The notes under the pieces are model-generated. The model was given only the letters and a program-made list of their open reading frames with translations, was not told the origin of the DNA and made no database searches. Positions 31,694 to 57,655 of a DNA stretch of 64,000 nucleotides are shown here, piece by piece; the first letter of the stretch is position 1, and the number at the start of each line of letters is the position of its first letter. Origin of the DNA: Nanobdellota archaeon (lineage in GTDB: Archaea; Nanobdellota; Nanobdellia; Pacearchaeales; GW2011-AR1); NCBI GenBank assembly GCA_038045765.1, contig JBBSXN010000005.1:136218-200217 (forward strand). Reading direction: 5' to 3'. Both the position numbers and the translations under genes were made by a program.

Positions 31694-31828
31694 ATGAAGA
31701 AATATTTACTTTTAATAGAGGATGAGAAGCTTTGGGAGAGATTTAAAGAGAATAATCAGAGTGATTTAAACACTGAGATAATTGATTTAATTAAAAGAAG
31801 AGTGGAGAGTAGAAATGTTAAGAAATAA
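31694..31828 (+). CDS. 44-aa ORF, possible ribbon-helix-helix-like mini-protein
   Basis: MKKYLLLIEDEKLWERFKENNQSDLNTEIIDLIKRRVESRNVKK. Overlaps the start of the 611-aa ORF; preceded by palindrome TTACTTAGTAAGTAA and GATTTATATAG. Speculative. Confidence 0.2.
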   Translation: MKKYLLLIEDEKLWERFKENNQSDLNTEIIDLIKRRVESRNVKK

Positions 31829-36600: not shown

Positions 36601-38854
36601 TGTTAATGTTAAACCTACTCTTGGAGTTGGTAATCAGCAAGTGAATTATGATAAATCTGGAGCACCAAGAGTATTTGATATATGTAATGTTGGAGATGAT
36701 TCTACTATTGATTCTAAAGATGAATGTCAGACAATCCATGTCGGAGTTAATGATAATGAACCTGTTCTTGGATTGGCTGCAGATAAATCGAGAAGTTTAA
36801 TTTCTAAAGCTAAACAAGCACTTATTGAGGCTGCTAGTCAGAGAGGAAGTAGTGTTGTAAGTGTTAATGGCCAGAAGATGAGAGTTGGAGAAAGAATGGC
36901 TGCTGTTTCAGGAATGCAGTGTCAAGACTTTATGAAACCTGAAGATTGTAAGTTATTGTTTAATGTTTGTGATCCAGTTATATGTCCTGCAAGTAGATGT
37001 AATTTTGGAGGGAAGTATCAAGTTGATGATGTAATTCAGACCGGAATTGTTGGAGGAGCATTGCTATGTTTACCAAATGCTCAAGAAGGAATAATTGCAC
37101 CCGTTTGTTTATCAGGTATACAGGCAGGTGTTGATGGATATTTGAGCGTTATGAAATCTTATAGAAGTTGTTTGCAGGAGAACTTGAAGACTGGAAAGTT
37201 GATTGGAGTTTGTGATCAGATACATTCTATTTATATGTGTGATTTCTTCTGGAGACAGTTTAGTCCATTAGCTAATGTTTTAGTTCCTAAAGTAGTTGAA
37301 TCGCTTTATTCAGGAAAAGCTGGAGGAGAAGTAAGAAATGGTGGAGAGTATCTTACTACTAAAACTGCTTTTGATAATACTAAGAAATCAGTAGACTTCT
37401 TTACTCAGAGCTATGCAGTTAATTCATTAAAAGCATTTCAAGCAAGATCAAGTGTGGAAGTTGGTGCTTTGGTTTGTAAGAGTTTTGTTTCTTCACAGTC
37501 TCCTAAGTCCTTTAAGAATTTAGTTGAGCCAGATAGTCCTCCTCAGTTTTTCGCACAGTTTGATTCAATTAGATTTACAGATACTACCATTCCTCCAACT
37601 GCACAGTATAAAGTATTTTATCATATATTTGCAGGAAAGGATAGGGGAGTTCAGTATAATATTTATTTGAAGAATCCTCCTACATCTAGTGAATATTTTG
37701 CAAATCCAACTATACAAGTTGAATCTGGTTTTATTGGATTAGGGCAGACAGTAGATAAAGCAAAAGACTTTACAGCTCCAGAAGGATATAAAGAGTTGTG
37801 TGTAAGAATAAATGATAGAGAGTATTGCGGATTTAAGCAAGTTACAACTGATTTTGGTTTGAATTATCTTAAGGATGAGTATGTTAAAGATCAGCTTCAA
37901 AATACAAATATTCAGAATGCTGAAGAGTGTATATACGGAACTCCTGATTTGAAAGGCGCATTAGCAAATACAAATCCTCAATTTGCTGGAGAAGAAGCAG
38001 GACTACCTCAAATATACAAGAGAGGAATAGTTAGGATATGTGCAAGTAGTAATCCAGGTGCTTCAACTAATTCTGAAAGATATCAAGCAGTAGGAAAGTG
38101 TGATGATAATAAGCAGTGCTGGCTTGATAAGCAGAGCGTAAATAATGCTTTGATAGATACAAACGCAGTTAAGAATATTGGCGCAAGGAATGAAACTTTG
38201 GATAAATTAAGTAAAGAACAGATTGCAAATCTCGGAAAGGATAATGCTGAACTTTATATAAAAGCTGAAGATAGTGAGAAAATAAAATTGAAAGTTAACG
38301 ATATAAAGACAAATACTAATGCTTTAGTAGATAACGGTGATTTGAAAAATATAGTTAAAAAAATAGTTGACGATATTGATTCATTTGTTGTAAAACATTT
38401 ATTTTATAACGAACATAAAGCTGAGTTTCTTTATTTGAAAGCTGAAGTTTATGGAAAAGCATTGAGTATTGTTAATCCAAAGAAAGCAGATGCTCAACTT
38501 TCAGCAACTGGTTCAACTATTGATTCTACGTCTGCTAGTAATAATCAAGTTAGTAATGTTCCTGTCGTTGAGGATAAATTAAGTTTTGATGAGGAATTTA
38601 GTTTGAGTGGAGGGAAGTCATATTTAGTATATTTAAATGATAAAGAATCAGGAGTATTAATAAATAATAAAGGAGTTTATTTTAATGCGAACAAGATTGG
38701 TAGTTTTAAAGTATCTGGAGATTTACTTATAATAAATCTTGATTATGATCTAGATGATGTTGTTCTTGTTTCTTTAGGATTAGACCAAAGAGTTGGAAAG
38801 CTGTTAGAAGGCGCAACAATTAAGCTTGGAAGTAAAGAGATCGTTAAGAAATAA
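33647..38854 (+). CDS. giant secreted Cys-rich protein (1735 aa)
   Basis: Uninterrupted 5.2-kb ORF with ATGA overlap to the previous gene. Signal MKIIYLLVLAGLVFASIAGVYA-Q. Roughly thirty Cys, including the cluster CQDFMKPEDCKLLFNVCDPVICPASRC. No family recognised. Confidence 0.75.
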   Translation: MKIIYLLVLAGLVFASIAGVYAQSTGFYGGVGSSSFVNQQLSRPSFQTYYGEDNRLGTYWPILNDKASCEGREDFILQVSPGGCQPAVVRSDLLEDQNVPVFCQVDALQINPLIDVKEIRNIRFSGKYPDNVAGVGFHPAKAALRTNDILLGSPVINNIGYVVVVLKRVQNESSIKDVLNMNLTAQLDYQAGNAYGIGKSEYYLEPSDDKSWNENRHKQGFFQGQYFVRLDDVDANFAQVSLYKGDVRITSTKVQLGRESADIFLPGFYCGAGLKVAYDGFVAKQDKARIEIRDERGVDSFDAYRGSTFLDGNCRVDNLNVNGDGSTGILEASCYGKRFVLSLGVKDPLNKTGESNVKNDDKIRPEVLNYLTETLKAYENVADDYPQETKKDSAGVRTYGEAALSQAIQIANDNKQFSTEVRLRNKFIELYPNSLEADGYKKIVQDRLNFDYVDAVKVIDIGSRPRTVSLIRFEKLQSQESKAKALFLIGGSQRTLRLGEESKEGDKTLRLVYIDSSNAKIDCSSVKNNNVVKSPTLSLRIGQNGNLCGDAGNKITLLEVQDVDRVARIRLIPHAKNPTTQTNLSLSIGIEKRAIQLSPEKTELKIKNLNKSIENWEKISKSLGKVVTGLKTACFATAGVLTIKNLLDGVGGEALARQQTMTGPGGWTEKCGQMVAKKEKGYTSMTQCYNGEADKINADVKTRTDALTKVNENIAQVEKDPSIVTKGVLESTVNVDKAKLAYAQKLKNQGLDVPTDEKTLKYITYSDLRELEYNSILKSKGLSVNQDKVNSDYDLVSNKIKASREMTELASQSQLVSNSLTGDSAGKIGDLPNANVARTRVYKLSDGKVEGKEIKALPVDVKPSAVSFLIGSKAIYDKNGNSEGYTNPQKFMVVGTLDGKGVLQGQQVYNITETNDKIEITGQPKDGNNVNAFLASYKVAQIKDTGAQKFGNPIISANQEVRYFGSGTYDGFAATVPFDIIEGWYVNVKPTLGVGNQQVNYDKSGAPRVFDICNVGDDSTIDSKDECQTIHVGVNDNEPVLGLAADKSRSLISKAKQALIEAASQRGSSVVSVNGQKMRVGERMAAVSGMQCQDFMKPEDCKLLFNVCDPVICPASRCNFGGKYQVDDVIQTGIVGGALLCLPNAQEGIIAPVCLSGIQAGVDGYLSVMKSYRSCLQENLKTGKLIGVCDQIHSIYMCDFFWRQFSPLANVLVPKVVESLYSGKAGGEVRNGGEYLTTKTAFDNTKKSVDFFTQSYAVNSLKAFQARSSVEVGALVCKSFVSSQSPKSFKNLVEPDSPPQFFAQFDSIRFTDTTIPPTAQYKVFYHIFAGKDRGVQYNIYLKNPPTSSEYFANPTIQVESGFIGLGQTVDKAKDFTAPEGYKELCVRINDREYCGFKQVTTDFGLNYLKDEYVKDQLQNTNIQNAEECIYGTPDLKGALANTNPQFAGEEAGLPQIYKRGIVRICASSNPGASTNSERYQAVGKCDDNKQCWLDKQSVNNALIDTNAVKNIGARNETLDKLSKEQIANLGKDNAELYIKAEDSEKIKLKVNDIKTNTNALVDNGDLKNIVKKIVDDIDSFVVKHLFYNEHKAEFLYLKAEVYGKALSIVNPKKADAQLSATGSTIDSTSASNNQVSNVPVVEDKLSFDEEFSLSGGKSYLVYLNDKESGVLINNKGVYFNANKIGSFKVSGDLLIINLDYDLDDVVLVSLGLDQRVGKLLEGATIKLGSKEIVKK

Positions 38855-43470: not shown

Positions 43471-44145
43471 ATGCTTACGCATAAGGTTTATAAGAAACTT
43501 AATCTATTTATAATAATGGTAAGAGAAAGAGTTATAGCTATATTTTTAGGCCTTATGTTATTTACTGGAGCTATTTTTTTCATTCAGTTAAATACTGAAC
43601 AAGGTTTTACTGGTTCTATAGTTCAGGATGCTAGATTAAAGCTGAGCGATAGTAAAGATGTTGGAGAGGGTTTTTCTTTAGATATAAATAGTTATGATAT
43701 TAGGTCTAACTTTATCGATGTTAGTTATAGTATTAAAGATAATTCTGGTGATAATCATGAATTAGAAATAAATTATTTTATCCATGATGAAGCTACAAAG
43801 GTAATCAAATCTGGAAGGGAAAGCGTAATTCTTCAAGCTGGAAAGGAAATGGATTATACATTATCAATTCCATTTAATAAAGAGGTAAAAGATAGTTTAT
43901 TTCTCACAATATTAGCAGATGATGGAATTAATGAGCGAAGAGCTAGAGTTCCTATTACTGTCTCATCGGGAAGTATTACTGGTAGTACAATAGGAGAAGA
44001 TAAAATCACTGCAACAAATTACTTTTTTATTATGTTTATTGCTTTGGCAGTTTTATTTTATTGTGTAAGAGCAATTTATTCTTATAGGCTGGGAAAGAAG
44101 ATTTCTAATAATGGTAATGATAGGTTCATATCTATACATCATTAA
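43471..44145 (+). CDS. bitopic envelope protein (N-terminal and C-terminal TM), hypothetical
   Basis: N-terminal helix VIAIFLGLMLFTGAIFFIQL, beta-rich middle, C-terminal helix YFFIMFIALAVLFYCV. The real start may be the ATG at 43516. Confidence 0.45.
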   Translation: MLTHKVYKKLNLFIIMVRERVIAIFLGLMLFTGAIFFIQLNTEQGFTGSIVQDARLKLSDSKDVGEGFSLDINSYDIRSNFIDVSYSIKDNSGDNHELEINYFIHDEATKVIKSGRESVILQAGKEMDYTLSIPFNKEVKDSLFLTILADDGINERRARVPITVSSGSITGSTIGEDKITATNYFFIMFIALAVLFYCVRAIYSYRLGKKISNNGNDRFISIHH

Positions 44146-45608: not shown

Positions 45609-47255
45609 TTATTTTTTCTTTAGAATTCTTATTAGTATTAATCCGATTATTATAAGGGAAATAATGGTTAGGAGAGGTATTTTTAATCTCTCCAGAGTTA
45701 TCTCCTTTTGACTTTTGACTGTAAACCAGACACTACTGCTAGCAATTTCTTGGTCATATTCAATGGTCACATATAATATATGCTGCCCAGACCTAACATT
45801 ATCTGGAAGTTTGAATACCTTTTCTAAAGATAATTCTTTATTTACATAGAGAGTTTCATTTTCAGTTAGTATGATTTTATTATACTGATCTTTGAGGTAG
45901 TAAGTTGCTTTAACTTGAGTTTCTTTTTCACCTAAATTATATAATTTTAATGAAGAGATAAGGTCTTCTCCAGGAGATGCAGTAAGATGGCTATTTTTGA
46001 TACTTATTTTAACATCAAATAAAGACTTTACCGAACTGATAGTTATAGAAACCGGTACACTAATATCTGCAATTCTAGATTTTATTAGTATATTTCCTAT
46101 GTAGTTATCTTCTGATAAGTTTTCACCAGCTATGAAATTTAAGTTAATCTCTTTTGATTGCCCTTTTGTTAAGTTAAATGATTTTTCATTAATTACCAGT
46201 ATATTTTCTAAGTTGGAGGATAATTCGATAGAAATATCTGATCTGTTGGAATTAATTATAGTTAAATTATATTTAGTTAATTCTCCTTTCTTTAAATTAA
46301 CAGCTAGATTATCTGGTTGGACTGTAAATGGAGGGTTTTGTGCTATTCCTCCTGCTCCAGAACCCTCTGAAGAACTACCAGAACTGCTGCTAGAGGAGCT
46401 ACTTCCTCCTGAATCTCCACTTCCTGAAGATGAAGTAGTTTCTTCTGCAGAATATGTCGAGAATGAAGTTACATTAAAGGTTAATGTTCCTGAAGAATAA
46501 GTTATCTTTGCACATTCACTTGATGAACATAAAGACCCATCTTTTAGTATTCTCGGGTTTGAAAAAGTTAAGTTATATAGCGTTAGAATTGCCGATTTGT
46601 TGAAGTTAGGCAAGGCTGAGGAGTTTAATTCAATTCTATTAAAACTTATATTCACATTATTTGATAGGTCGCATAAGTTATTAGAGCATTGTGTAAGATT
46701 GATTGTTTCCTGGAAATTAATCTTCCCAAAATTGCTTTTTTCTAAAGATATATTGCTTAAATTTTGAATTTCTTCATAACCGTAGTCATAAAAATCAGTT
46801 GTTTCTCCTTCAGTTATAAATTCATTATAACTAACATTAAATCTAGTATTATTTATTGTAAAATTAATATTTTTAACAACAACATTATTATCAGTATCAT
46901 TGGCATAGATGCGTAGGGAATGAGCGCCATTTGAAGATATATTAAATAAAATCGGAGCAGTGATAGTTATGTTTGTACCACCATCTAAAGCATACCAAAA
47001 AGCCATTTCATTAACTGAAGTATAATTTAGAAGGATGTTCTCTTTCGTAAAATAAGTCACGTTTCTCGGGCTTATTAGAGCAGTATTTGGTAAAAGAGCA
47101 GTAATTTGAACAGATATAGAAGCATATTGTACTGTTGCTTTGCCCGTAATGGCCTTTCCAGTAATAGTATTATTTGAAGAAGAGATACTAGATGAATTTG
47201 TAGATAATATTATAATCAATAGTAATATTATCAGACAATTAGTATATTGTTTCAT
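45609..47255 (-). CDS. NxS/T-rich surface protein (548 aa) with Ig-like domain, Ser/Gly linker and C-terminal TM anchor
   Basis: Signal MKQYTNCLIILLLIIILS. Domain NVTYFTKENILLNYTSVNE..YALDGGTN...HSLRIYANDTDNN is related to the Ig-like repeats of the giant. Linker SSSGSGDSGGSSSSSSSSGSSSEGSGAGG. Anchor IPLLTIISLIIIGLILIRIL-KKK. Confidence 0.65.
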   Translation of the reverse strand: MKQYTNCLIILLLIIILSTNSSSISSSNNTITGKAITGKATVQYASISVQITALLPNTALISPRNVTYFTKENILLNYTSVNEMAFWYALDGGTNITITAPILFNISSNGAHSLRIYANDTDNNVVVKNINFTINNTRFNVSYNEFITEGETTDFYDYGYEEIQNLSNISLEKSNFGKINFQETINLTQCSNNLCDLSNNVNISFNRIELNSSALPNFNKSAILTLYNLTFSNPRILKDGSLCSSSECAKITYSSGTLTFNVTSFSTYSAEETTSSSGSGDSGGSSSSSSSSGSSSEGSGAGGIAQNPPFTVQPDNLAVNLKKGELTKYNLTIINSNRSDISIELSSNLENILVINEKSFNLTKGQSKEINLNFIAGENLSEDNYIGNILIKSRIADISVPVSITISSVKSLFDVKISIKNSHLTASPGEDLISSLKLYNLGEKETQVKATYYLKDQYNKIILTENETLYVNKELSLEKVFKLPDNVRSGQHILYVTIEYDQEIASSSVWFTVKSQKEITLERLKIPLLTIISLIIIGLILIRILKKK

Positions 47256-47305
47256 ATCTTTTTATGAGGCCATTTATATTTAAATGTGTTTAGAATAGAA
47301 TATAA

Positions 47306-47866
47306 TTATTTATTCTTTGACTTTCTAACAAACCAAATAATTATTGCAATCAAAATTATTATTCCCACTAACATGTAAATATAAGAATTATTAGATTTTA
47401 CTGGTTTTTCTTCTATGATTGTTTTTTCTGTTGGCACTACTATATCGAATGACTTGTCAAATACGCTTCCTAAGCTAAATCCAGAGGCTGAAGGGTTTAC
47501 TGCTGAGAAAGATAAGATAACATTATGTCTCTCTCCTATTTTGGCTGTTGCAGGCATAGTAACTTTTATATTTACTTTGATGTTTTGAGTTTGTGCTGGG
47601 ACATTGTAAACTTCATTTGAATCAATTAATTCAATAAATTCAGCTCCTTTAGTTATACTTACTTTAAAATTAAGATCATCAGTCCCAACCATGTTCTGCA
47701 ATTCAAAAAATATTTCCTTTGATTCTCCTGGTTGAAGGTAAAGTGGTCTTTCGTTATCTCCATCCCAGTAAAATGAAGTGACTCCTGATGCTGAAACAAA
47801 TGAGAGTGTTAAAGCTAGAGCTAAAAGAGAAAACAATGCAAGATTTATTGATTTATTGATTTCCAT
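47306..47866 (-). CDS. surface beta-sandwich protein (186 aa) with C-terminal TM anchor
   Basis: Signal ...LALTLSFVSASG; C-terminal YIYMLVGIIILIAIIIWFV-RKSKNK. Same architecture as ORF 31059-31622. Confidence 0.6.
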   Translation of the reverse strand: MEINKSINLALFSLLALALTLSFVSASGVTSFYWDGDNERPLYLQPGESKEIFFELQNMVGTDDLNFKVSITKGAEFIELIDSNEVYNVPAQTQNIKVNIKVTMPATAKIGERHNVILSFSAVNPSASGFSLGSVFDKSFDIVVPTEKTIIEEKPVKSNNSYIYMLVGIIILIAIIIWFVRKSKNK

Positions 47867-47868
47867 TT

Positions 47869-48831
47869 TTAAACTATTTTAATTGTCCAAGGACCTTGAG
47901 TAGTATTTGTTGTATAAGCTTGAGAGATTATTTCAGTTCCAATTGTTCTTATACAGAAGTATAGCTGTTCTTGACCTGTTGAACCATCATTAGCAGAATG
48001 ATTTCCTATAAGGAGTCTTGATTGATTTATACTAGTAAATATGCTTTTATTCATACTAGTTGCGTTGTTTAATCCGCCAGAAATATCACATTCTCCACTA
48101 CTTCCAGTTGTAACTCCTACAGATATATTAGCAGCCCAAATACCATATACTGCGTTTGTTTCTCCTATCAAGTCTGTTGCGTTAATTTGAACATTACCTG
48201 CAGTAATGTTCTTGTTACCTGTGTTGTTTAAAAGAAGAGGATCGTTATTTGAAGTCTGGTTAGATGAACCTCTAGATAGTGTTGCGAAAGTCAAGTTACC
48301 TGGACTAGATACAAAGGCAGAAGTTTGACCAAGAGTGAATGTTGCTGTATGATTAACTACGTTTGTACTACTTAAGTCTCCTGCAGACACATTAACAGAC
48401 CAAAGTCCAGATGCGTCAAAATAGTTAATTGCTATAGAACAAGTAAAGTTTGCATAGTCGGTTGAAAAATTAGCAGTGCCTACGCAACCAGTTGAATTTG
48501 ATTGTCTAGTTACTTCATTTGTTTTATTGAACTGTGCTTTAGCGTTAGTTCCATTAATATTGGTAAAACCATCTACATCGTGTACAGTGAAATTTAACAT
48601 TACTAATGTAACTCCATTTTCAGTAATAGAAGGAGCTGCATTAATAATCACCATAGTTATATTTGGAGGAGTACCTGCTATGCTAATATTTAATCCAACA
48701 TTTTGACTTGTTGCTCTACCCGTTATAGAACTAAAAAAATCTGATAAATCTGCTGAAACGAATGAAATCATTAAAATTGAAAATAGTAAAAATCCAAAAA
48801 TAAAACTAGCTCCTCTTTTTTTGTTTTCCAT
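47869..48831 (-). CDS. surface protein paralogous to the C-terminal ectodomain module of the 2210-aa giant
   Basis: Track start 48846 is GTG. ATG 48831 lies ~25 nt after TTTAAATATAAAA. N-terminus MENKKRG-ASFIFGFLLFSILMISFV is pilin-like K-R-G-A-S. Shares long identical runs with the giant (NDPLLLNNTGNKNITAGNVQINATDLIGETNA; NDGSTGQEQLYFCIRTIGTE) and ends ...GPWTIKIV-stop. Confidence 0.65.
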   Translation of the reverse strand: MENKKRGASFIFGFLLFSILMISFVSADLSDFFSSITGRATSQNVGLNISIAGTPPNITMVIINAAPSITENGVTLVMLNFTVHDVDGFTNINGTNAKAQFNKTNEVTRQSNSTGCVGTANFSTDYANFTCSIAINYFDASGLWSVNVSAGDLSSTNVVNHTATFTLGQTSAFVSSPGNLTFATLSRGSSNQTSNNDPLLLNNTGNKNITAGNVQINATDLIGETNAVYGIWAANISVGVTTGSSGECDISGGLNNATSMNKSIFTSINQSRLLIGNHSANDGSTGQEQLYFCIRTIGTEIISQAYTTNTTQGPWTIKIV

Positions 48832-48865
48832 CACTCCATTAATCACATATTTTTATATTTAAACC

Positions 48866-51800
48866 TTACTGTGGTGCGATGTATTCTTTTTCTTCTCTAT
48901 TTTCTGTTGCTTTTTTGTATGTTGTCCAAATATTTCTTTGATCCCTATTCAATAACTTAGCAATTTCCACATATTTTAGACCTTTTTCTTTAAGATATAT
49001 TATAGATGATTCAATTATAGTATGATCTCTATTTCCAATGAATGAAAGTGGAAGTAATGGAGTGTTTTCATTTATCTCTAAGCTATAACTTATCTTTTTA
49101 CTCGCTTTATTATATGCAGTCCAGATAGTTCTTTGATCTCTATTCAACAATCTAGCAATTTCCACATAACTTAGACCTTTGTTTTCTTTAAGATATTTAC
49201 ATACTGCTTCTAATCCTCCAAGACCTTTTGTAAATATACTTACAGGAATAGTATCATTTATATTTTCATTTATAATTTGAAGTAATTCTTGTTTGGTAAT
49301 GGAGTATTTCTTTTGTATTTCTTCAAATAAGATATTTATTACTTCAGATTGTGGAACTGATTCTTTAATTGTTATTTCTGTTTTAGTTATTAATAATGCT
49401 TTTAGCAATTTATCTTTAGTTATTTTCTTCTTCTTTCTTGAAAGAGAGCCAAATGCAAATGCTACTGCTAATATTTTTATTGTCCAAGGACCTTGAGTGG
49501 TGTTTGTAGAATACGCTTGTCCTATGTTTTCAGTTCCAATTGTTCTTATGCAGAAGTACAATTGTTCTTGGCCTGTTGAACCATCATTAGTAGAATGATT
49601 ACCTACAAGAAGAATAGATTGGTTTACGGCGTTAAAATAGCTTTTATTCATACTTGAAGCGTTCCCATTAATTCCAATATCGCATTCTTTATTGCTTCCA
49701 GTGAAGATTCCTACAGAGATATTAGCCGCATAGATTCTATAGGCTGCATTCGTTTCTCCTATCAAGTCTGTTGCATTAATCTGAACATTACCTGCAGTAA
49801 TGTTCTTGTTACCAGTATTATTCAAAAGAAGAGGATCGTTTGATGCTGTTTGGTTAGATGCCCCCCTAGATAATGTTCCAAATGTTAAATTACCCGGACT
49901 AGTTACAAATGCTGAAGTTTGACCTAGAGTGAATAATCCAGTTTGATTAACTGCATTCGCACTGCTTAAATCGCCGATAGATGCATTAACTGTCCAATCA
50001 CCAGAACCATCAAAATACCATATATTAACTGTACATGAGAAATTAGCATAGTTTGTTGACCAATTAGCAGTGTTTATACATGAAGGATCTTTTCTTGTTG
50101 TTTCAAGAGTTCTATTAAATGAAGCTTTAGCGTTGCTTCCATTTATATCTGTAAAACCGTCAGCATCATAGACTGTAAAGTTTAATTTTGCAGAAGTGAA
50201 AGAGTTTTCAGTTATTGAGAATGAGGAAGAGATAGTAACATTTGTTATAACTGGTGCAGTATTACCTGAACTTATTGTTACAGTTCTTGATCTGCTGTTT
50301 CTATTTGCTGCTGAATCAACTGCATAAGATGTGAATGAATGGGAACCAGTTGATAGGTTTGTGAAGTTATTATAATATTTATTTGCAGAAGCATTGTATA
50401 ATGACTTTATTTCTGCTAAGGATAAAGATCTATTGAAAATCATAATTTCATCCATCGAACCATTGAAATACTCCACTGCTCTTCCTGGGCTGTTGATAGA
50501 TATGACATTAAAACTCGATGTTCTTGTTGGATTAATACTAGATTTAATACCATTTAAATAAGCACTACTTACATTACTGCTATTCTGACTTATAACTATA
50601 TGAAACCAATTAGTAGTATCAATCGTGAGATCGGTGTACGTAGTTGGCGAAGAACTCTCAAAATAGAGTTTATTTGTAGTTTGAGTAATAAAAATACCAT
50701 CTCCTCCTCCGAAACCTATTAAAGTTTTCCAGTTATTAGATGTTAATTCATTTCTTTTTATCCAAAAAGAAAAAGTAAATTCTTGTGGAGGAGCAAGGGA
50801 AATAGCGGGGACGCTAACCCAATCATCGCCACCATCAAATACAAAACTTTTTCCGAATCTTCCAGAACCTTGGCTTGAGTTCTGTGAAGCTCCATTTTTA
50901 GCAGAACCATTATTTATTCCAGTTAAATCAATGGGATCGCTGCTCGCATTTAAATCATCCATTGTCCACCAGCCTACAAGTGAATTGTCAAAGTTTGTTA
51001 CGACATAGTGGTCTGGGTCTGATAAGCCTGACAATGAACCATTAGATGAAACATTTACTACTATTGCTGTTGCTGATTGCGAAGAAGCATCTGCAGGAGT
51101 ATTTCCTATAAATGAAATTGCAGGTTTTGTTGTATCTACATAGAAAGTAATATTTGATGTTAAATTAGTATTTCCAGCAGTATCATTTGAATATACTTTG
51201 AAGTTATATGTTCCATCAGCTATTGAAGTATTTGTTGCATTGAAGCCTGTTCCGGATGCATTTCCAGTCATAGAATAGTTTGTTAATCCATTATCTAATG
51301 AATATCTAACAGAACCATTTTCATTCAGACTTACATTGAAAGTTATAGAGGATGAATTGTAAAATGCAGTCTGTGGATTTATTATTGTAACAATTGGGCT
51401 TGTTAAGTCTATACTGAATGTAACATTCGCTGTATTGTTATTATTTCCAGCAGTGTCATTAGCATAAACTTTGAAAGTGTAGCTTCCTGCAGCTATGCTT
51501 CCATTGCTTCTGTTAAGCATTGATCCTATTGTTCCTCCAGTAGAATTTAGAAGAGTATAATTATTCAATCCATTATCTAAAGAATATTTTGCTGAACCTT
51601 GCTCATTCAAGCTCACATTGAACATTAGAGGTAGATGAATTGTGCTGTAAGTAGTGTTGGCTGGGAAGTTTATTGTTATTACTGGTGAGGTTGTGTCTGG
51701 TGTTATTAGATAGTCTGTTGTTGCATTAGCAGGATTTGTTGTTGTTGCTTGCAGTATCGGAGTGAAGAATCTATTTGAATCTGATGTTAAAAGAAAGTTT

Positions 51801-54800
51801 GGAAGGACATGAGTTGCTGTTGTGGGAATTGTAAAATTGTTTAATGACCAGTTATCGTTACTATTTCTTGCAGTAATGTTTTGATAGTCTGTAAAAGTCC
51901 AGAGTGCACGTCCTTTAACATAAATCTCTGAAACTTCTCCAGCTGTTAAAGAACGATTGAAAATCATAACTTCGTCGATTGATCCTTGGAAATCTTTTGC
52001 TGTTGCGCCAGGAGATACTCCATCTGTTCCTATTTTTACTGCTGTTGATGAAGAGTCCCAAGTTGCTTTTGTATCTGAAGCAACAACTGAACCATCTAAA
52101 TATATTGTAACATTACCTGCATTTATTGTACACACAACATGCTGCCAGACACCTGCAGTGACTGTTCCGCCAAGTAATTCATCTATTCCATATTTTCCAC
52201 AGCTTATAGCTTGAGCAGTATCAATTCCAAAAGCGTAACTGTTTGTTGTCCTTTCAATTATTCCTTCTCTTTGTGCGCCTAAAGAGGAAGGTTTTATCCA
52301 AGCCATTAGTGTCCCTTGAGTCATTAAGTTAAGTCTTGAATCTGAAGAAGCCGGAACGTTAACATAATCTCCTGAGCCGTCAAATTGCAATGCTCTGTCA
52401 TAAACAGAATCAGTTATTGTTGTGTTGCCTCCAATTATTGTCCCGTTGTGAAGACTTCTTCTGTCTACTGCAAGAGTTTGATTTTCATTTAAATTTGAAC
52501 GATTATCAAAATTGAAATATGCTCCAAGCAAATTTAAAGATGAATCTATATCTGAAGTGTTGTAGTCATATGAAATGTCCCAAGTTCCTATTCTAGCGCT
52601 GATATTGGTTCCAAATTTTCTATTATAGTTTTGAAGAGAAAGGTTGAAATTATTTACATTTGAGGTTATGTTGAAAGCTCTTATTTCCTGAATACCTGAT
52701 GAGACATATCTTCTTGAAGTGTTTTGATATATTTGAGAAACTTGGGTATCATTTAATGAAATGTTTAGGAACATAAATTCATCAATGGCTCCTTTCCAGG
52801 TTTGACCACCGTTAAACCAGTCACCAATACTTATCAATGTGTCTGGAGCTCCTATGCTTCCAGGAGTGTTTGTTAAATGATAATATGTTGTGTTTATGTA
52901 TAGGCCCAGACCCGAATCATTTTTTACTAAAGTATAATATTGCCAGCCAGTCCCTGCAGGATTTATAGTTGTATCTATTTGACCTATACCATTACCCAGT
53001 TCAACTCCTATAAAATTTTGAGAGGTATAACCTAAAGTAACCCATTCAGCATTTCCAGGTCTATTTGTAAAGATACCTATTCCGGCAGCTGCATCTGCAT
53101 CTAGTCTTGCCCAGACACTCGCTGACCAGTTTCTATTTGTCCAGTCTATAGGAATAAGGTCTACACTTATATAATCCCCTGCTCCGTTTAATTGGAAGCA
53201 ATTATTAATTACACAGTTTGTTGAGTTAGTTATATTGTTAGCTATAAATGTACCATTGTAATTATTTGCAAAATCATATGAAGTGGTTGCATCATCTTTG
53301 TCAAAAGGATAGTAGGCAATTATATTATCGCTTATTTCATGAACAGAAGATGTTTTATCAGTAGATAAGTGGGAATATTGGGAATTGGCTAAGCCTTCGA
53401 TGCTAATATTATTTCCAGGTGTTGAACTATTTTCTCTTGAGAAAATAAGAGTGAATGTTTGATTTGATAAATGTGGAACTACCCATTCAATGTAATCAAG
53501 GTTTCCATTTCCATCTAAGTCGTAAGAATCAAAAGGCATTTCCTGTAGAATGTAATTTTGGTTTTGTATTGAGTTTGTTAAATTTGTAAAATTATTTTCT
53601 AAATTGATGTAAGGTATGTTTGAAACTGGTATTTCAGAGTTTTCTATTAGATTTGTTTCTGAAATATTATTAACTTCTTTTAATTGAATTGAATTGTTTT
53701 CATAGTTGTGCCAGAAAAGCTTAATGTTTTCAGAAGAGCTAATCGGAATAGAATTTGGTATATTTGTTGAAGCTATTACGTCTGTGTAATGTAAAGAATC
53801 TGGACCAGAAATTAAGATTTCTTTTCCTGCTTCAGTTTCTTTTTCTTGTGAAGTTGGAGCTTCGGTTTCGTATTCAATTGTATAATCCTTGGAATTGTCA
53901 TCAAGAATTATATTAACTTCAGGATTGACTTGTTCTGAAGAGTCAGATATAGCATATCCTGTGAATGCGCTTCTTAATTTATTAAAGAAGTTTTTGAAGA
54001 AGCTAGGTTTGTTCGAGTTGAAATTACTTATTACATTACCAGTTATTGTATTTGAAACTCTTTGAGAATTTTCTTCTTTGGAAGTTTCAGTGACTTTGAT
54101 ATTTTCAGCATTTTCAGGCAAAGAAAGAGTTAAGTTTTCTACATCATCAAATGAAATATTCTTTTCCCATTTGACTGGTTCTCCAACAGTTATTTTACTT
54201 CTTGTTGTTGAAATGCTGACTGTGTTAGAAGAGATTAAAACTAGGAATTCATTGCTTTCTAGACTTTCATTTTCTCTGTAGGCAATTATCTTTCCCTTTG
54301 TTGCACCTTTGAAGTTTTCTAAAGGAGTTAATGATATGATGTCTCCAGTGATGGAAGAGTTTAGATTATTACCTATAAATTCATAGAAGTAAGAATTTTC
54401 AAAGTAATCAGTCAGAGTGAGATTAATTGTTTGGTTTATTGATATTCTTTGAGTAGGTATTTCTTTTATTAGTTTTAAGGTGGAATTTGATATTTCAGTT
54501 ATATTAGATATAGTTTCATTTAGTATTGTTTCGTTTGTTTGTGTTTGGTTAAATGTATCTGTAAGGTTTAAGATTTCTGAGTTGTTTAGTAAATCTTCTG
54601 TTTGGTTGAGTTCTTGCTCAATATTGTCTAATTCTATTATTTGATAGTTTAATGAATCGATGTTTATTTCAGAATTGTCTAATTCTATTCTTATTGTGTA
54701 GATTGATTTGTTTAAGTTTAAATTTTCTAAGTCGCAAGTATCTTGACAGTAATCTGTGAAAGTTATCTCATTTAAAATCTCATTAGGAGCGGAGGTAGAG

Positions 54801-55498
54801 TCGCTTGGGGAAGGGCTCACTTCCTCTTTTGGGCTATCTACCTCCTTCTCCTTGGTTTGAGTGGGATTTGTGATGTCTTCAGTTACTTCAGAATTGTAGC
54901 CTGTTTGAACTGCGAAACCTGTTAAGAAACTATTTTTATTTTTTTCGGCTTTGAGAGAATTTGAATCAAGAATCAAAATGTCATCTAAGTATATTTTTGC
55001 TGAACCAGAATCCAACATTTTTCCAGAAATCTTTAGAGAAGTTAATTGACCTAGATTCTTTATTTGCCAGGCATAACTTGAAGAATTTCCTAAATTAAGA
55101 TTTATATCTTCAGTATAAGTTTGAGAGTTATCTTGCGTAGCGAAACCAATTATTTTCCCGCCTTGCGTTGCAAATAATAATATGAAAATGGAAATAAAAA
55201 AGAAACTTGCGAGAGAAGAAATTATATTGCTTCTTTTTATTATACCTCTTTCGCTTTCAATTATATTTTTACATTCTAAAATATAGTTGTCGTAATATTT
55301 AATCCATTCTTCAAAGGTCTTTTCGCCTTGTTTTTTTGAAGCTAAATTTTCGTATTCTTCGTAAGAAATTTCTCGGTTAAGACATTTATTTTTTAGTACT
55401 TGTAATTGATTTACAAAGTGCTTTCTATAACCTTCACAAGTCTTAATTCTGCTTTCGTAACTAACAATCCTACGTCTAGCAAGGTGAGCCCTTCCCAT
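48866..55498 (-). CDS. giant (2210 aa) membrane-anchored surface protein: 3x LamG/ConA-like lectin modules, Ig-like repeats, C-terminal tandem HTH tail
   Basis: Uninterrupted 6.6-kb ORF. N-terminal ~90 hydrophilic aa, then TM IISSLASFFFISIFILLFA. Three Laminin_G_3-like signatures: CFQLNGAGDYISV...WKGAIDEFMFLNISL; ALQFDGSGDYVNVP...FQGSIDEVMIFNRSL; SFVFDGGDDWVSVP...FNGSMDEIMIFNRSL. Tail after ILAVAFAFGSLS-RKKKK has two LSYVEIARLLNRDQRTIWTAYNKA-type HTH motifs. Confidence 0.8.
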   Translation of the reverse strand: MGRAHLARRRIVSYESRIKTCEGYRKHFVNQLQVLKNKCLNREISYEEYENLASKKQGEKTFEEWIKYYDNYILECKNIIESERGIIKRSNIISSLASFFFISIFILLFATQGGKIIGFATQDNSQTYTEDINLNLGNSSSYAWQIKNLGQLTSLKISGKMLDSGSAKIYLDDILILDSNSLKAEKNKNSFLTGFAVQTGYNSEVTEDITNPTQTKEKEVDSPKEEVSPSPSDSTSAPNEILNEITFTDYCQDTCDLENLNLNKSIYTIRIELDNSEINIDSLNYQIIELDNIEQELNQTEDLLNNSEILNLTDTFNQTQTNETILNETISNITEISNSTLKLIKEIPTQRISINQTINLTLTDYFENSYFYEFIGNNLNSSITGDIISLTPLENFKGATKGKIIAYRENESLESNEFLVLISSNTVSISTTRSKITVGEPVKWEKNISFDDVENLTLSLPENAENIKVTETSKEENSQRVSNTITGNVISNFNSNKPSFFKNFFNKLRSAFTGYAISDSSEQVNPEVNIILDDNSKDYTIEYETEAPTSQEKETEAGKEILISGPDSLHYTDVIASTNIPNSIPISSSENIKLFWHNYENNSIQLKEVNNISETNLIENSEIPVSNIPYINLENNFTNLTNSIQNQNYILQEMPFDSYDLDGNGNLDYIEWVVPHLSNQTFTLIFSRENSSTPGNNISIEGLANSQYSHLSTDKTSSVHEISDNIIAYYPFDKDDATTSYDFANNYNGTFIANNITNSTNCVINNCFQLNGAGDYISVDLIPIDWTNRNWSASVWARLDADAAAGIGIFTNRPGNAEWVTLGYTSQNFIGVELGNGIGQIDTTINPAGTGWQYYTLVKNDSGLGLYINTTYYHLTNTPGSIGAPDTLISIGDWFNGGQTWKGAIDEFMFLNISLNDTQVSQIYQNTSRRYVSSGIQEIRAFNITSNVNNFNLSLQNYNRKFGTNISARIGTWDISYDYNTSDIDSSLNLLGAYFNFDNRSNLNENQTLAVDRRSLHNGTIIGGNTTITDSVYDRALQFDGSGDYVNVPASSDSRLNLMTQGTLMAWIKPSSLGAQREGIIERTTNSYAFGIDTAQAISCGKYGIDELLGGTVTAGVWQHVVCTINAGNVTIYLDGSVVASDTKATWDSSSTAVKIGTDGVSPGATAKDFQGSIDEVMIFNRSLTAGEVSEIYVKGRALWTFTDYQNITARNSNDNWSLNNFTIPTTATHVLPNFLLTSDSNRFFTPILQATTTNPANATTDYLITPDTTSPVITINFPANTTYSTIHLPLMFNVSLNEQGSAKYSLDNGLNNYTLLNSTGGTIGSMLNRSNGSIAAGSYTFKVYANDTAGNNNNTANVTFSIDLTSPIVTIINPQTAFYNSSSITFNVSLNENGSVRYSLDNGLTNYSMTGNASGTGFNATNTSIADGTYNFKVYSNDTAGNTNLTSNITFYVDTTKPAISFIGNTPADASSQSATAIVVNVSSNGSLSGLSDPDHYVVTNFDNSLVGWWTMDDLNASSDPIDLTGINNGSAKNGASQNSSQGSGRFGKSFVFDGGDDWVSVPAISLAPPQEFTFSFWIKRNELTSNNWKTLIGFGGGDGIFITQTTNKLYFESSSPTTYTDLTIDTTNWFHIVISQNSSNVSSAYLNGIKSSINPTRTSSFNVISINSPGRAVEYFNGSMDEIMIFNRSLSLAEIKSLYNASANKYYNNFTNLSTGSHSFTSYAVDSAANRNSRSRTVTISSGNTAPVITNVTISSSFSITENSFTSAKLNFTVYDADGFTDINGSNAKASFNRTLETTRKDPSCINTANWSTNYANFSCTVNIWYFDGSGDWTVNASIGDLSSANAVNQTGLFTLGQTSAFVTSPGNLTFGTLSRGASNQTASNDPLLLNNTGNKNITAGNVQINATDLIGETNAAYRIYAANISVGIFTGSNKECDIGINGNASSMNKSYFNAVNQSILLVGNHSTNDGSTGQEQLYFCIRTIGTENIGQAYSTNTTQGPWTIKILAVAFAFGSLSRKKKKITKDKLLKALLITKTEITIKESVPQSEVINILFEEIQKKYSITKQELLQIINENINDTIPVSIFTKGLGGLEAVCKYLKENKGLSYVEIARLLNRDQRTIWTAYNKASKKISYSLEINENTPLLPLSFIGNRDHTIIESSIIYLKEKGLKYVEIAKLLNRDQRNIWTTYKKATENREEKEYIAPQ
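49469..50265 (-). repeat. about 0.8-kb coding segment duplicated in neighbouring gene (47872-48675)
   Basis: Nucleotide and protein similarity is visible over the whole module. Mismatches are spread over all four bases. Confidence 0.7.
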
Positions 55499-55500
55499 TA

Positions 55501-55548
55501 CTTATCTTATATGTAAAAGAGCTTATAAATCTTATCTAATATGTAAAA
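55501..55548. promoter_or_regulatory. two 18-nt direct repeats bracketing the TATA box of the giant gene
   Basis: CTTATCTTATATGTAAAA (55501-55518) and CTTATCTAATATGTAAAA (55531-55548) are 17/18 identical and 30 nt apart. ATTTATAAG lies between them on the gene strand. Repeat 1 ends 3 nt from the ATG. Confidence 0.5.
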
Positions 55549-55580
55549 TAATACTTACTATTTATGTAATTAGAAAGGTA

Positions 55581-55663
55581 AAGTAGTGCCTAATTTGTTT
55601 ATTTTTTAAGTTTATGTAGTGGGTAATTGGGAAGATTTATAAATTTATAAGTAGTGCCTAATT
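55581..55663. promoter_or_regulatory. three spaced copies of GTAGTG-NN-TAATT upstream of ORF 55665
   Basis: AAGTAGTGCCTAATT at 55581-55595 and 55649-55663 (identical); degenerate TATGTAGTGGGTAATT at 55613-55628. The last copy ends 1 nt before the ATG. Confidence 0.45.
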
Positions 55664-55895: not shown

Positions 55896-55939
55896 GTTAA
55901 TGAAAAAGGATTTATTGTTATGTCTTTGGAGGATTGTTG

Positions 55940-57655
55940 ATGGCATTCATAGTTAAGAAAAAAATAAATGGAAATGAATACTTTTACTTAAGAGAAAGTG
56001 TTAGAACTGGAAACAAAGTTAAGGCGCGGACGATTGCTTATTTAGGGAAAGATAAAGTTGAAGCTGAAAAAAAGGCTAACTTATTTTTGAAAATACCTGA
56101 GAAGAAAGATTTAAAGGTGGAAGTTGTTGAGTTAAATAATATGGATAAAAGTCAATCAAAAGAAAATATGGAAAAGAAAGAATCCAGTGAATTAACAATT
56201 GAAGAATTGGCTGTTTTTTGTAAGAGAAAGGGATTCGTTTTTAGAAGTAGTGAGGTTTATGGAGGTTTTTCAGGATTTTGGGATTATGGTCCGTTAGGTT
56301 CAGAATTATTTAATAATATCAAGCAAGACTTTTGGAAGTTTTTTGTTCATCAGAAAGATAATATGGTGGGAATAGAAGCTTCAATTATTTCTCATCCTAA
56401 AACTTGGAAGGCTTCTGGACATTTGGCTTCTTTTTCAGATATCGCAGTTACTTGTAAAAAATGTAAAAAAGCTACTAAGATAGATAAATCTGAACTTGGA
56501 AAAGTTAAGTGTGAATGTGGTGGCGAATATGAATCGCAGGGAGAATTTAATTTAATGTTTAAGACGAGTGTTGGAGCTTTGAATCCTGTTGATGCTTATT
56601 TGCGTGGAGAGACTGCACAAGCAATGTTTATGGATTTTAAGTTGGTTCATGAAACTGCAAGAAAGCAATTACCTTTTGGAATTTTACAAGTTGGAAGATG
56701 CTTTAGAAATGAGATTGCTCCTAGAGATTTTATTTTTAGATTAAGAGAGTTAACAATTGGAGAATTTGAATTTTTCATTCATCCAGAAGAAAAGAATTGT
56801 AATTTATTAGATAGTGAGCATAAAAATGTTAAGCTTAGATTGCTTGATGCTGAAAATCAGGTAAAAGGAAAAAATAATCTTAAAGAAATTACAATTGGAG
56901 AAATGGTAAAAGAAAATAAATTAGATGAATGGCATGCTTATTGGCTAGCTGAACAAGTTTTATGGTTTAAGAGACTTGGATTGGAAAAAGAAATAAAAAT
57001 TAGAGAGCATATGAAAGATGAACTTAGTCATTATTCTTCTGCAACTTTTGATTTAGATTATGAATATCCTTTTGGAAGTAAGGAAGTTGGAGGTAATGCT
57101 AATCGTGGTCAATATGATTTAGGACAGCATGCAAAAGAATCTGGTGCAAATTTTGAGATTTTTGATGAAAAGAGTAAAAAGATGATTTTACCGAAGGTAA
57201 TTGAACCTACTTTCGGAATGGATAGAGTTTTTCTCGCTATGCTTTGTAAAGCGTATCATAAAGATGCTAAGAGAGAGAATATTGTTTTAAGATTGCCTGC
57301 AAGATATGCTCCAGTGAAAGCAGCAGTTTTTCCAATAATTAAAAGTGAAGAGTATGAATTAATTGCTGAGAAAATTGTAAAAGACTTAAGAGAAGAGTGG
57401 AATGTAAATTATGATAAGTCTGGAAGCATTGGAAAGAGATATGCAAGAAATGATGAGATTGGAACTCCTATGTGCATTACAATTGATGAAGAAACTTTGA
57501 AAGATGAAAGTGTTACAATAAGAGATAGAGATACGACACAACAGGTTAGAGTTAAGATTAAAGATTTAAGAGAGGTAATGTGGAAAGTTGTAAATGAAGG
57601 GAAAAATGTTTTGGATTTTGGTAAGAAGGTTGAGACTAGAGTTAAAGAAAAATGA
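55940..57655 (+). CDS. glyS: glycyl-tRNA synthetase (archaeal/eukaryotic alpha2 type) with ~85-aa N-terminal extension
   Basis: Class II motifs FRSSEVYGGFSGFWDYGPLG, YLRGETAQ, GRCFRNEIAPR, FGMDR; anticodon-binding C-domain. ATG 55940 is preceded by GGAGG; the track start is TTG at 55934. Confidence 0.9.
   Translation: MAFIVKKKINGNEYFYLRESVRTGNKVKARTIAYLGKDKVEAEKKANLFLKIPEKKDLKVEVVELNNMDKSQSKENMEKKESSELTIEELAVFCKRKGFVFRSSEVYGGFSGFWDYGPLGSELFNNIKQDFWKFFVHQKDNMVGIEASIISHPKTWKASGHLASFSDIAVTCKKCKKATKIDKSELGKVKCECGGEYESQGEFNLMFKTSVGALNPVDAYLRGETAQAMFMDFKLVHETARKQLPFGILQVGRCFRNEIAPRDFIFRLRELTIGEFEFFIHPEEKNCNLLDSEHKNVKLRLLDAENQVKGKNNLKEITIGEMVKENKLDEWHAYWLAEQVLWFKRLGLEKEIKIREHMKDELSHYSSATFDLDYEYPFGSKEVGGNANRGQYDLGQHAKESGANFEIFDEKSKKMILPKVIEPTFGMDRVFLAMLCKAYHKDAKRENIVLRLPARYAPVKAAVFPIIKSEEYELIAEKIVKDLREEWNVNYDKSGSIGKRYARNDEIGTPMCITIDEETLKDESVTIRDRDTTQQVRVKIKDLREVMWKVVNEGKNVLDFGKKVETRVKEK

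Follow-up and report, generated by a model that had tools for sequence, protein, structure and literature searches.

Four adjacent genes in a 64-kb stretch of DNA from a Pacearchaeales archaeon (contig JBBSXN010000005.1, positions 136,218 to 200,217; hereafter the window) appear to encode a surface receptor or adhesin complex, and we lean toward the view that its giant subunit doubles as a transcription factor, tethered to the membrane and autoregulating the operon. The giant ends in a predicted cytoplasmic tail with two tandem helix-turn-helix (HTH) units, and the operon is preceded by a promoter with two identical 16-bp boxes, an arrangement found almost nowhere else. Given the tandem HTH tail and this near-exclusive promoter, the case for a signaling or regulatory role is no weaker than that for a purely structural role. 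The operon itself appears to be a conserved, unnamed hallmark of Woese- and Pacearchaeota.

An earlier model-made reading of the letters of this DNA (the sequence-only reading) had described four co-directional minus-strand genes, and the open reading frames (ORFs) bear this out. Gene 1 (family code G; 48866..55498) encodes the giant of 2210 residues and is further supported by full-length relatives (P0002–P0007). It is followed by gene 2 (S; 47869..48846), with 325 codons from a GTG or 320 from the ATG at 48831, gene 3 (A; 47306..47866; 186 residues), and gene 4 (B; 45609..47255; 548 residues), all on the minus strand and separated by gaps of 19, 2, and 50 nt. All six hidden Markov models (HMMs) built for the family match the operon of the window in order, and the promoter with box, TATA, and box is present.

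The giant protein and its cytoplasmic tail

From its N-terminus, the giant consists of a cytoplasmic N-domain, a first transmembrane segment (TM1), a sequon-rich ectodomain of ~1890 residues that includes three LamG and two Big_13 domains, a second transmembrane segment (TM2) with a polybasic RKKKK, and a cytoplasmic tail. The N-domain (residues 1–91; 55226..55498, minus strand, as are all features of the giant) carries the conserved motif ISYxEY...EW..YYD.Y..C and no sequons. TM1 (residues 92–113; 55160..55225) is a signal-anchor with a hydropathy peak of 2.54 at residues 92–110. The N-terminal part of the ectodomain (residues 116–700; 53399..55153) has no match in Pfam, and its HMM ('necto') matches most relatives. 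TM2 (PWTIKILAVAFAFGSLS) and its RKKKK stop-transfer signal occupy residues 2004–2026 (49421..49489), as judged from the sequence and the family alignment. On the giant, the domain HMMs map to residues 1–110 (nterm), 116–700 (necto), 1738–2009 (prox), and 2033–2205 (tail).

The middle of the ectodomain is built from recognizable modules. LamG domains 1 (residues 738–924; 52727..53287), 2 (residues 1001–1200; 51899..52498), and 3 (residues 1522–1701; 50396..50935) were placed by Pfam Laminin_G_3 and self-BLAST, and the best PF13385 stretch in LamG domain 2 is at residues 1040–1190. Between the second and third lie two tandem immunoglobulin (Ig)-like Big_13 domains (residues 1291–1462; 51113..51628; PF19077, 51.3 bits), a region that also contains the DNA repeats D3 and D6. 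PF13385 (Laminin_G_3) matches the giant in three stretches with an E-value of 2e-52 and 177.8 bits, above the curated threshold, which confirms the 'giant lectin' of the sequence-only reading; the LamG domains are of lectin type and are predicted to bind sugars. A two-Ig module next to the membrane (residues 1735–2010; 49469..50296), paralogous to gene 2, completes the ectodomain.

The distribution of sequons (NxS/T) follows these compartments. The giant has 97 sequons where 51.9 are expected from composition (z 7.7). Of these, 96 fall in the ectodomain (5.1 per 100 residues) and one in the tail (0.5 per 100 residues), and the N-domain has none. Such a split points independently to an in-out-in topology. 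Other ORFs of the window mostly have 0–1 sequons per 100 residues, with a maximum of 3.0. The topology departs from the earlier description on two counts. An N-terminal signal had been assigned to all four proteins, and this fails for the giant, in which a cytoplasmic domain of 91 residues precedes the signal-anchor. A C-terminal helix with a basic tail had been assigned to three of the proteins; it is present in the 186- and 548-residue proteins, but the 325-residue protein lacks one and the helix of the giant is followed by a further 184 residues.

The cytoplasmic tail (residues 2027–2210; 48869..49420) holds HTH1 (49079–49246) and HTH2 (48884–49051), both of the sigma-70-region-4/LuxR type. 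PF08281 (Sigma70_r4_2) matches it with 27.8 bits in the whole protein and 35.5 bits when the tail is searched alone (cut-off 25.7), and matches 26 of 26 family tails. In the structure model, two units, each composed of a beta strand and three helices, reach a predicted local distance difference test score (pLDDT) above 90. Foldseek searches with this model returned sigma region 4 domains (SigR, sigma-E on -35 DNA, and SigC) and RcsB, with a probability of 0.97–0.99 for sigma region 4. A search of the PDB with the single tail sequence gave no match; only the family profile reached EnfR (8hno), its best sequence match, at an E-value of 1.3e-3 over 38 residues of HTH2. The tail is thereby predicted to bind DNA. 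No module of the operon is better conserved than the HTH units, which have a mean pairwise identity of 57%, compared with 31% for the tail linker, 30% for the N-domain, 32% for the N-terminal ectodomain, 38–40% for the membrane-proximal module, and 30% for the 186-residue family.

In public sources the family is named only 'hypothetical', and fragments carry the automatic labels 'sigma24', 'CsgD', and 'NarL/FixJ'. Membership in a sigma/anti-sigma system was considered and rejected: there is no sigma-2 domain and no anti-sigma match in Pfam, TIGR02937 scores 13.9 bits against a cut-off of 42.9, and archaea are not known to have sigma factors. The tail module is doubled, giving four HTH units, in 16 of the 147 representatives scanned with the family HMMs; giants of this kind include those of loci L035, L036, L042, L056, and L081 and proteins P0028, P0039, P0122, P0171, and P0179.

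The two ends of the giant go together. The N-domain was found in 57 complete representatives and co-occurs with the tail; all 7 tail-bearing giants compared have it, and 16 of 16 tail-less ones lack its motif. Both cytoplasmic ends, the N-terminal ectodomain, and the membrane-proximal module recur in the full-length relatives P0002–P0007 (1866–3687 residues). The middle of these proteins varies: several contain LamG and Big_13 domains, P0006 has no LamG at all, and P0005 and P0007 contain repeats that resemble a beta-helix when judged by eye. An intein-like insertion suspected by eye in P0007 was discarded, having no Pfam support.

Two identical boxes around the TATA-like element

Upstream of the giant's ATG, two identical 16-bp boxes with the motif ACAYA.ATARTAAGTA stand on either side of a TATA-like element. 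The distal box (ACATAAATAGTAAGTA; 55552..55567, minus strand, as are the other promoter elements) spans -69 to -54 from the ATG and coincides with a family-wide peak near -70, and the proximal box (ACATATAAGATAAGTA; 55499..55514; -16 to -1), placed by the family-wide promoter alignment, abuts the ATG. The TATA-like element (TTTATAAG; 55522..55529; -31 to -24) is kept between two boxes in 25 aligned promoters. It is preceded by a middle box (ACATATTAGATAAGA; 55530..55544; -46 to -32) that is a degenerate copy of the 16-bp box. Each box is bipartite and non-palindromic, with roughly one helical turn between its half-sites, ACAYA and TAAGT.

The distal and proximal boxes are the only strict matches to the motif in the window. 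The succession of box, TATA, and box recurs across species, with box starts 51–53 nt apart in most aligned promoters. Across 1.3 Mb of loci fetched from related genomes, the single-box motif has 89 matches, of which 66 lie no more than 200 nt upstream of annotated giant starts; the remaining 23 mostly precede giants whose start is wrongly set. A metagenome scan with the two-box pattern returned 87 matches in 79 loci. An ORF for the N-terminus of a giant begins at offset -1 or 0 after 66 of these matches, and 6 further matches are followed by a free-standing tandem-HTH protein of 185–232 residues without a transmembrane segment. The arrangement is thus almost exclusive to the operon, accounting for at least 72 of the 87 metagenome matches. 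The free-standing HTH gene abuts a gene encoding the N-domain, a transmembrane segment, and the N-terminal ectodomain, and the split and fused forms make up a gene fusion/fission pair. One natural free-standing homolog is the 185-residue protein of L118. Since the boxes precede the HTH in both fused and split forms, they accompany this module wherever it goes, and the N-domain is kept next to it.

The position of the TATA-like element predicts a leaderless or near-leaderless mRNA, the transcription start being placed by general archaeal promoter geometry. The proximal box would cover this predicted start site, a position suited to a repressor, and the distal box would lie upstream of the B recognition element (BRE) and TATA, a position suited to an activator. 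Lineages with ...NY.NA... or KDPRN recognition helices retain near-canonical boxes that are shifted upstream by a structured leader. A sub-lineage with ...NY.NA... in HTH1 (loci L075, L076, L079, L082, L061, and L048) has its promoter of box, TATA, and box farther upstream, followed by a long leader, in the region ~40–150 nt upstream of the giant's ATG. The leader contains a GC-rich hairpin with CACACCCTAG in its loop; a U-run comes next, and after it a GGAGGT Shine-Dalgarno-like site. Attenuation, or the binding of a protein to this RNA element, would be a possible function.

A second repeated element, a 15-nt exact direct repeat (AATTAGGCACTACTT; 55581–55595 and 55649–55663, minus strand), lies in the interval that separates the boxes from the divergent DUF3850 gene. 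Its two copies are 68 nt apart (0.38 expected by chance), and one abuts the ATG of the DUF3850 gene. L001 and L002 retain the repeat and L064 and L031 have variants of it; it may be a second operator or a promoter element of the divergent gene.

Partner proteins, distribution, and flanking genes

The 325-residue protein encoded by gene 2 is a paralog of the giant's membrane-proximal module, with 71% amino acid and ~80% DNA identity to residues 1735–2010. Among 69 relatives, all have a signal peptide and none has a C-terminal transmembrane segment; the protein is thus probably a secreted, unanchored copy of that module. Its structure model (pLDDT 82.5) consists of a signal helix and two beta-sandwich domains. 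Foldseek retrieved generic tandem-Ig structures only (Fabs, RbmA, and the Ig and lectin part of a sialidase, with TM-scores of 0.2–0.3), and no functional assignment follows from these generic matches.

The paralog and the giant evolve in concert. Across species, the paralog has a median identity of 66% to the module of its own giant, while paralog-paralog, paralog-giant, and giant-giant comparisons between genomes all average 37–40%. In a neighbor-joining tree, paralogs and giant modules are intermixed, and 39 paralogs pair with their own giant. Mosaic conversion tracts in both directions are visible among the window and two close relatives; the giant of L001 bears the allele of the small gene, and the small gene of L002 bears the allele of the giant. 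The excess of identity within genomes (66%) over that between them (~37%) therefore indicates that gene conversion keeps the paralog and the giant's module alike. That a domain of one gene should evolve in concert with an adjacent free-standing gene across a whole order is unusual and calls for explanation. Most plausibly, the free paralog pairs with the matching stalk of the giant, and gene conversion would preserve a quasi-homotypic interface.

Genes 3 and 4 encode what are probably C-terminally anchored type-I membrane proteins, whose families were sampled through the fetched loci. The 186-residue protein has a signal peptide, a single Ig-like domain, and a C-terminal transmembrane segment followed by RKSKNK, and such a segment is present in 71 of 75 relatives. 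The 548-residue protein comprises a signal peptide, a Big_13-like Ig domain, a middle domain, a Ser/Gly linker that the sequence-only reading had correctly noticed, two Ig domains with weak matches to Cep192/HYDIN-type Ig families, and a C-terminal transmembrane segment followed by KKK. The 186-residue family is homologous to the last Ig domain and transmembrane segment of the 548-residue family (hhalign probability 93%). Shared Ig-like motifs, also remarked upon earlier, are present, and the similarity between the N-terminal Ig domain of the 548-residue protein and Big_13 of the giant is weak (27% identity, E 0.002). The extreme sequon density claimed for the operon is above composition in the giant, the 325-residue protein (21 sequons vs 8.9 expected, z 4.9; family median 5.4 per 100 residues), and the 548-residue protein (23 vs 12.9, z 3.6; family median 3.0), but not in the 186-residue protein (2 vs 2.0; family median 0.5).

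Two candidate assignments for these proteins were rejected. An LPXTG sortase anchor in the 186-residue protein scores 19 bits in Pfam (cut-off 20) and 16.3 with TIGR01167 (cut-off 15.9); these matches span the helix and basic tail only (profile positions 15–41 of 43 and 8–34 of 34, respectively), and the sequence (...EEKPVKSNNSYIYMLVG...) contains no LPXTG motif. A Nup98 autopeptidase in the 548-residue protein was weak (2 of 15 members, E ~1e-3) and was dismissed as chance. Three of the four proteins carry, after the N-terminal hydrophobic segment, an I/V-T-G-x-A-T/V motif that is kept in their families: residues 116–121 of the giant (IIGFAT), 37–44 of the 325-residue protein (ITGRATSQ), and 40–50 of the 548-residue protein (ITGKAITGKAT). 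It falls in a disordered stretch of the structure model and could be a processing or docking site.

Relatives of the operon occur across Woese- and Pacearchaeota. A profile of the C-terminal module matched at least 3673 protein clusters at E ≤1e-3 among 1.84 billion representatives, none of them named, and the module is almost always at the C-terminus of its host protein; complete giants range from 1025 to 4280 residues. Species-representative genomes contain 315 stretches encoding relatives, of which we fetched 80 species-level loci. With the exception of two that are probably mis-binned, all of these come from Woese-, Pace-, or Nanoarchaeota or unclassified archaeal metagenome-assembled genomes (MAGs). 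The sequence-only reading had called for a synteny search in Woese-, Pace-, and Nanoarchaeota MAGs, and HMM mapping found the order giant, paralog, 186-like, 548-like in 50 of the 64 cassettes with enough downstream DNA to be testable; the first three genes are kept in at least 58 of them. Median gaps in the conserved cassettes are 45, 1, and 39 nt. A few genomes have the cassette twice, side by side: locus L011 has two cassettes in tandem, and L082 has a second giant downstream. Contigs nearly identical to the window are present in Hainich groundwater samples (ERZ1292619 and related).

As the sequence-only reading had stated, no characterized S-layer, archaellum, or pilus protein resembles the operon's products: in Pfam and NCBIfam, none of the four belongs to a curated S-layer, archaellin, or pilin family. 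A match of TafC reaches 73 bits against a cut-off of 410 and covers the LamG part only. The four proteins were not found to belong to known families lacking linkage, and the block is conserved in relatives. The idea of a dedicated, linked surface system of the Woese-/Pace-/Nanoarchaeota type therefore stands, but the giant, as a double-pass protein with an HTH tail, is more than an anchored lectin. We found no description in the literature of the family, its partner genes, its promoter, or membrane-tethered regulators in DPANN archaea.

A divergent 76-residue DUF3850/ASCH gene lies upstream of the block, as does GlyRS; on the downstream side, a convergent DUF5679 zinc-ribbon gene bounds it. 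The GlyRS ORF has an N-terminal extension (55934–56230, plus strand) of ~90 additional residues with the motif FIVKKKINGNEYFYLRESVRTGNKVKARTIAYLGK, which has no match in Pfam. By eye it resembles MVYKRYIKKNGK.YGPY.Y..R..GKV...YLG, the opening motif of different, tail-less giant DPANN surface proteins (N-termini of P0008, P0009, P0012, P0013, P0017, P0019, P0020, and P0022). GlyRS genes of relatives equal that of the window in length.

Elsewhere in the window, 31815–38854 (plus strand) encodes proteins of 611 and 1735 residues, probably the other surface operon of the sequence-only reading. They have N-terminal hydrophobic segments, are rich in Cys (10 and 30) and poor in sequons (0.4–0.5 per 100 residues), and are unrelated to the giant; a comparison of the large surface genes at 33647–38854 with the giant found no sequence similarity. 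Their scarcity of sequons indicates that the window has a contrasting, apparently non-glycosylated surface system. A further protein of 224 residues (43471–44145, plus strand) is laid out like the 186-residue protein, being hydrophobic at the N-terminus and beta-rich in the middle, with a transmembrane segment at the C-terminus; HMM and Pfam comparisons show no similarity between the two.

Mechanism, rival explanations, and related systems

We propose that the tail, by means of its tandem HTH, binds both of the 16-bp boxes and, as these flank the TATA of the operon's own promoter, would autoregulate the operon. The ectodomain would form a loop consisting of a conserved N-terminal part, a binding middle that varies between lineages, and the conserved two-Ig module next to the membrane. 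Binding of a ligand or host surface by this loop would alter the availability of the tail for DNA. A conformational change or proteolytic release could bring this about, with the partner proteins and the cytoplasmic N-domain as possible intermediaries. Genes 2–4 would supply three Ig-fold partners, one a secreted copy of the module and two type-I membrane proteins. Binding of the boxes by the tail, the sign of regulation, and the kind of signal are matters of inference. Sequon density, taxonomy, and domain types suggest glycosylation, episymbiosis, and host attachment.

Several points weigh against a tethered autoregulator. The evidence is wholly computational. Foldseek E-values for the tail are weak (0.02–0.6), because the domains are short and the model is partly disordered, and TM2 is short (~16 residues) and under the standard hydropathy threshold. 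Nine of the 87 two-box matches have no recognizable downstream ORF, and the strict box scan covered part of one genome, so that other genes may bear the box. An ectodomain of ~2000 residues, fixed at both ends, must sit near one chromosomal site. Finally, some other factor could bind the boxes, or they could be special elements of the core promoter or leader.

This last possibility amounts to a rival explanation in its own right: a real surface complex, whose boxes are bound by another regulator not linked to the operon, or are core-promoter or 5' leader elements of an unusual kind, and whose tail would have other DNA or protein targets. The connection between tail and boxes is indeed indirect, and recognition-helix subtypes of the HTH show no clear covariation with box sequence, a point that also counts against our proposal. 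An A/T-rich box at the predicted transcription start moreover occupies the site of initiator-like elements. Set against this are the near-exclusive association of the two-box arrangement with the operon, in both the 1.3 Mb of genomes and the metagenome scan, the presence of the boxes before the HTH gene whether fused or split, and the fit of bipartite, non-palindromic half-sites one helical turn apart to two non-identical tandem HTH units. We consider this explanation improbable. A purely structural envelope or attachment complex, such as an S-layer-like canopy, deserves more weight, although we judge it rather unlikely. The free two-Ig protein would then form the bulk lattice into which the giant inserts by its matching module, the 186- and 548-residue proteins would be membrane stalks, and the HTH tail, with no regulatory function, might tether the complex to the nucleoid or a cytoplasmic protein. 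All four proteins are Ig-rich surface proteins, three of them heavily sequon-rich in the manner of archaeal S-layer glycoproteins, and concerted evolution of free and fused modules suits lattice compatibility. The combination of anchored and unanchored proteins recalls SlaA/SlaB, an S-layer pair of that design, and the operon is near-universal in its clade and lies among housekeeping genes. However, no S-layer family was matched in either collection, and the most conserved part is not a surface module but the cytoplasmic HTH pair, which the two-box promoter accompanies even when it is a separate soluble protein. Second place after a 6.6-kb gene would also be odd for a very abundant lattice subunit.

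The conversion tracts raise the question of antigenic or phase variation, in which the 325-residue gene would be the donor used to overwrite the membrane-proximal module of the giant. Two-way mosaic tracts in three close relatives speak for such a system, yet all 69 loci have an intact small gene complete with signal peptide, and only a single donor copy is present, unlike pilE/pilS-type systems with their several promoterless, truncated, or silent cassettes. Conversion here raises the likeness of the copies and not their diversity, and the variable part of the giant is its middle rather than the module in question, which makes this explanation very unlikely. Least credible of all is a chance neighborhood of generic adhesins or a mobile or viral insertion. 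LamG and Ig are generic domain types, but order and spacing are kept over ~80 species-level genomes, the GlyRS flank is the same in L001–L003, GC content is even throughout the four-gene region, and no viral relatives were found among 2.9 million viral contigs. On the last two observations, a viral or mobile origin was rejected.

Transmembrane transcription regulators, defined by Demey et al. 2023 as having a DNA-binding domain and a transmembrane segment in one polypeptide (PMC10269533), are an accepted class in archaea (PMC10269533, PMC6396743), and ArnR of Sulfolobus shows that membrane-bound HTH factors exist there (PMC6396743). The giant has the predicted DNA-binding domain and, in TM1 and TM2, at least one predicted transmembrane region in the same polypeptide. 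The family may belong among these regulators, and the conserved, near-exclusive pair of boxes that accompanies the HTH module is indirect evidence that the giant would bind DNA and control transcription while membrane-bound. Like the bacterial ToxR/ToxS, TcpP/TcpH, and CadC and the archaeal ArnR/ArnR1, it combines an HTH and a membrane span in one protein that is encoded with its likely target operon. ToxS and TcpH are extracytoplasmic partner proteins of their sensors, and the giant likewise appears to be accompanied by such partners. In ToxR-type regulators the HTH is an N-terminal winged helix, whereas that of the giant is C-terminal, tandem, and of the sigma-region-4 type. Also unlike them, the giant spans the membrane twice with both ends in the cytoplasm, its sensor is an adhesin-like loop of 1000 to >4000 residues with swappable modules, and one partner copies the sensor's own stalk and is kept alike by gene conversion.

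The operon also resembles extracytoplasmic function (ECF) sigma/anti-sigma pairs and SigI/RsgI of Clostridium thermocellum, in which the anti-sigma carries extracellular carbohydrate-binding modules. Both combine a sigma-4-like HTH with a membrane protein that has a cytoplasmic N-domain, one transmembrane segment, and a carbohydrate-binding-type ectodomain; the split forms, with a free HTH gene followed by a gene for N-domain, transmembrane segment, and ectodomain, mirror the sigma-then-anti-sigma gene order, and a specific promoter of its own suggests autoregulation as in ECF systems. The operon differs in its two tandem sigma-4-like units and in the fusion of the partners into one polypeptide in most lineages. 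With Notch-type receptors and others acting by regulated intramembrane proteolysis, the giant shares a large modular adhesive LamG/Ig-type ectodomain, a membrane span, and a transcription-regulating intracellular tail. This likeness is a functional analogy only: there is no homology, the setting is prokaryotic, and cleavage is hypothetical here.

Giant surface proteins of DPANN archaea, which are small and symbiotic, include SPEARE of Ca. Nanohaloarchaeum antarcticus (PMC6642349), and archaeal 'huge proteins' rich in Laminin_G_3 have been described with a function 'not understood' (PMC11573180). The giant is, like these, a very large LamG-containing predicted surface protein; unlike them, its family is set by conserved ends, three partner genes, and a promoter, and not by LamG, which P0006 lacks. 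EnfR (TON_1525, PDB 8hno) is an archaeal DNA-binding HTH repressor (PMC10570040). It is a soluble protein of 152 residues with a single HTH, in contrast to the membrane-linked tandem HTH of the giant, and the match is confined to the 38 residues in HTH2. Archaeal transmembrane regulators and LamG-rich giants are thus known, and what appears to be new is a family defined by conserved ends, partner genes, and box promoter.

How ultrasmall DPANN archaea recognize and respond to their hosts is an open question, and because Woese- and Pacearchaeota are uncultivated, hypotheses derived from genomes are the main route to it. Here, an anonymous 'LamG hypothetical protein' becomes a defined, clade-wide system with parts that can be tested: a soluble HTH tail of 184 residues, a 16-bp candidate operator that occurs two times within ~70 bp of promoter, a two-Ig partner that is secreted, and naturally split genes. 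If the tail binds the boxes, it would be a membrane-tethered, adhesin-coupled archaeal transcription factor and a direct handle on contact-dependent gene control. More tentatively, Woese- and Pacearchaeota may sense contact with a host or substrate via a single Notch-like molecule that joins a giant, rapidly diversifying adhesin, a gene-converted stalk-copy co-receptor with the N-domain, and a built-in tandem HTH that switches the attachment operon and perhaps a wider regulon. Were this bolder proposal true, it would be the first contact-to-transcription pathway proposed for DPANN archaea and would represent a new class of prokaryotic receptor-transcription-factor fusion.

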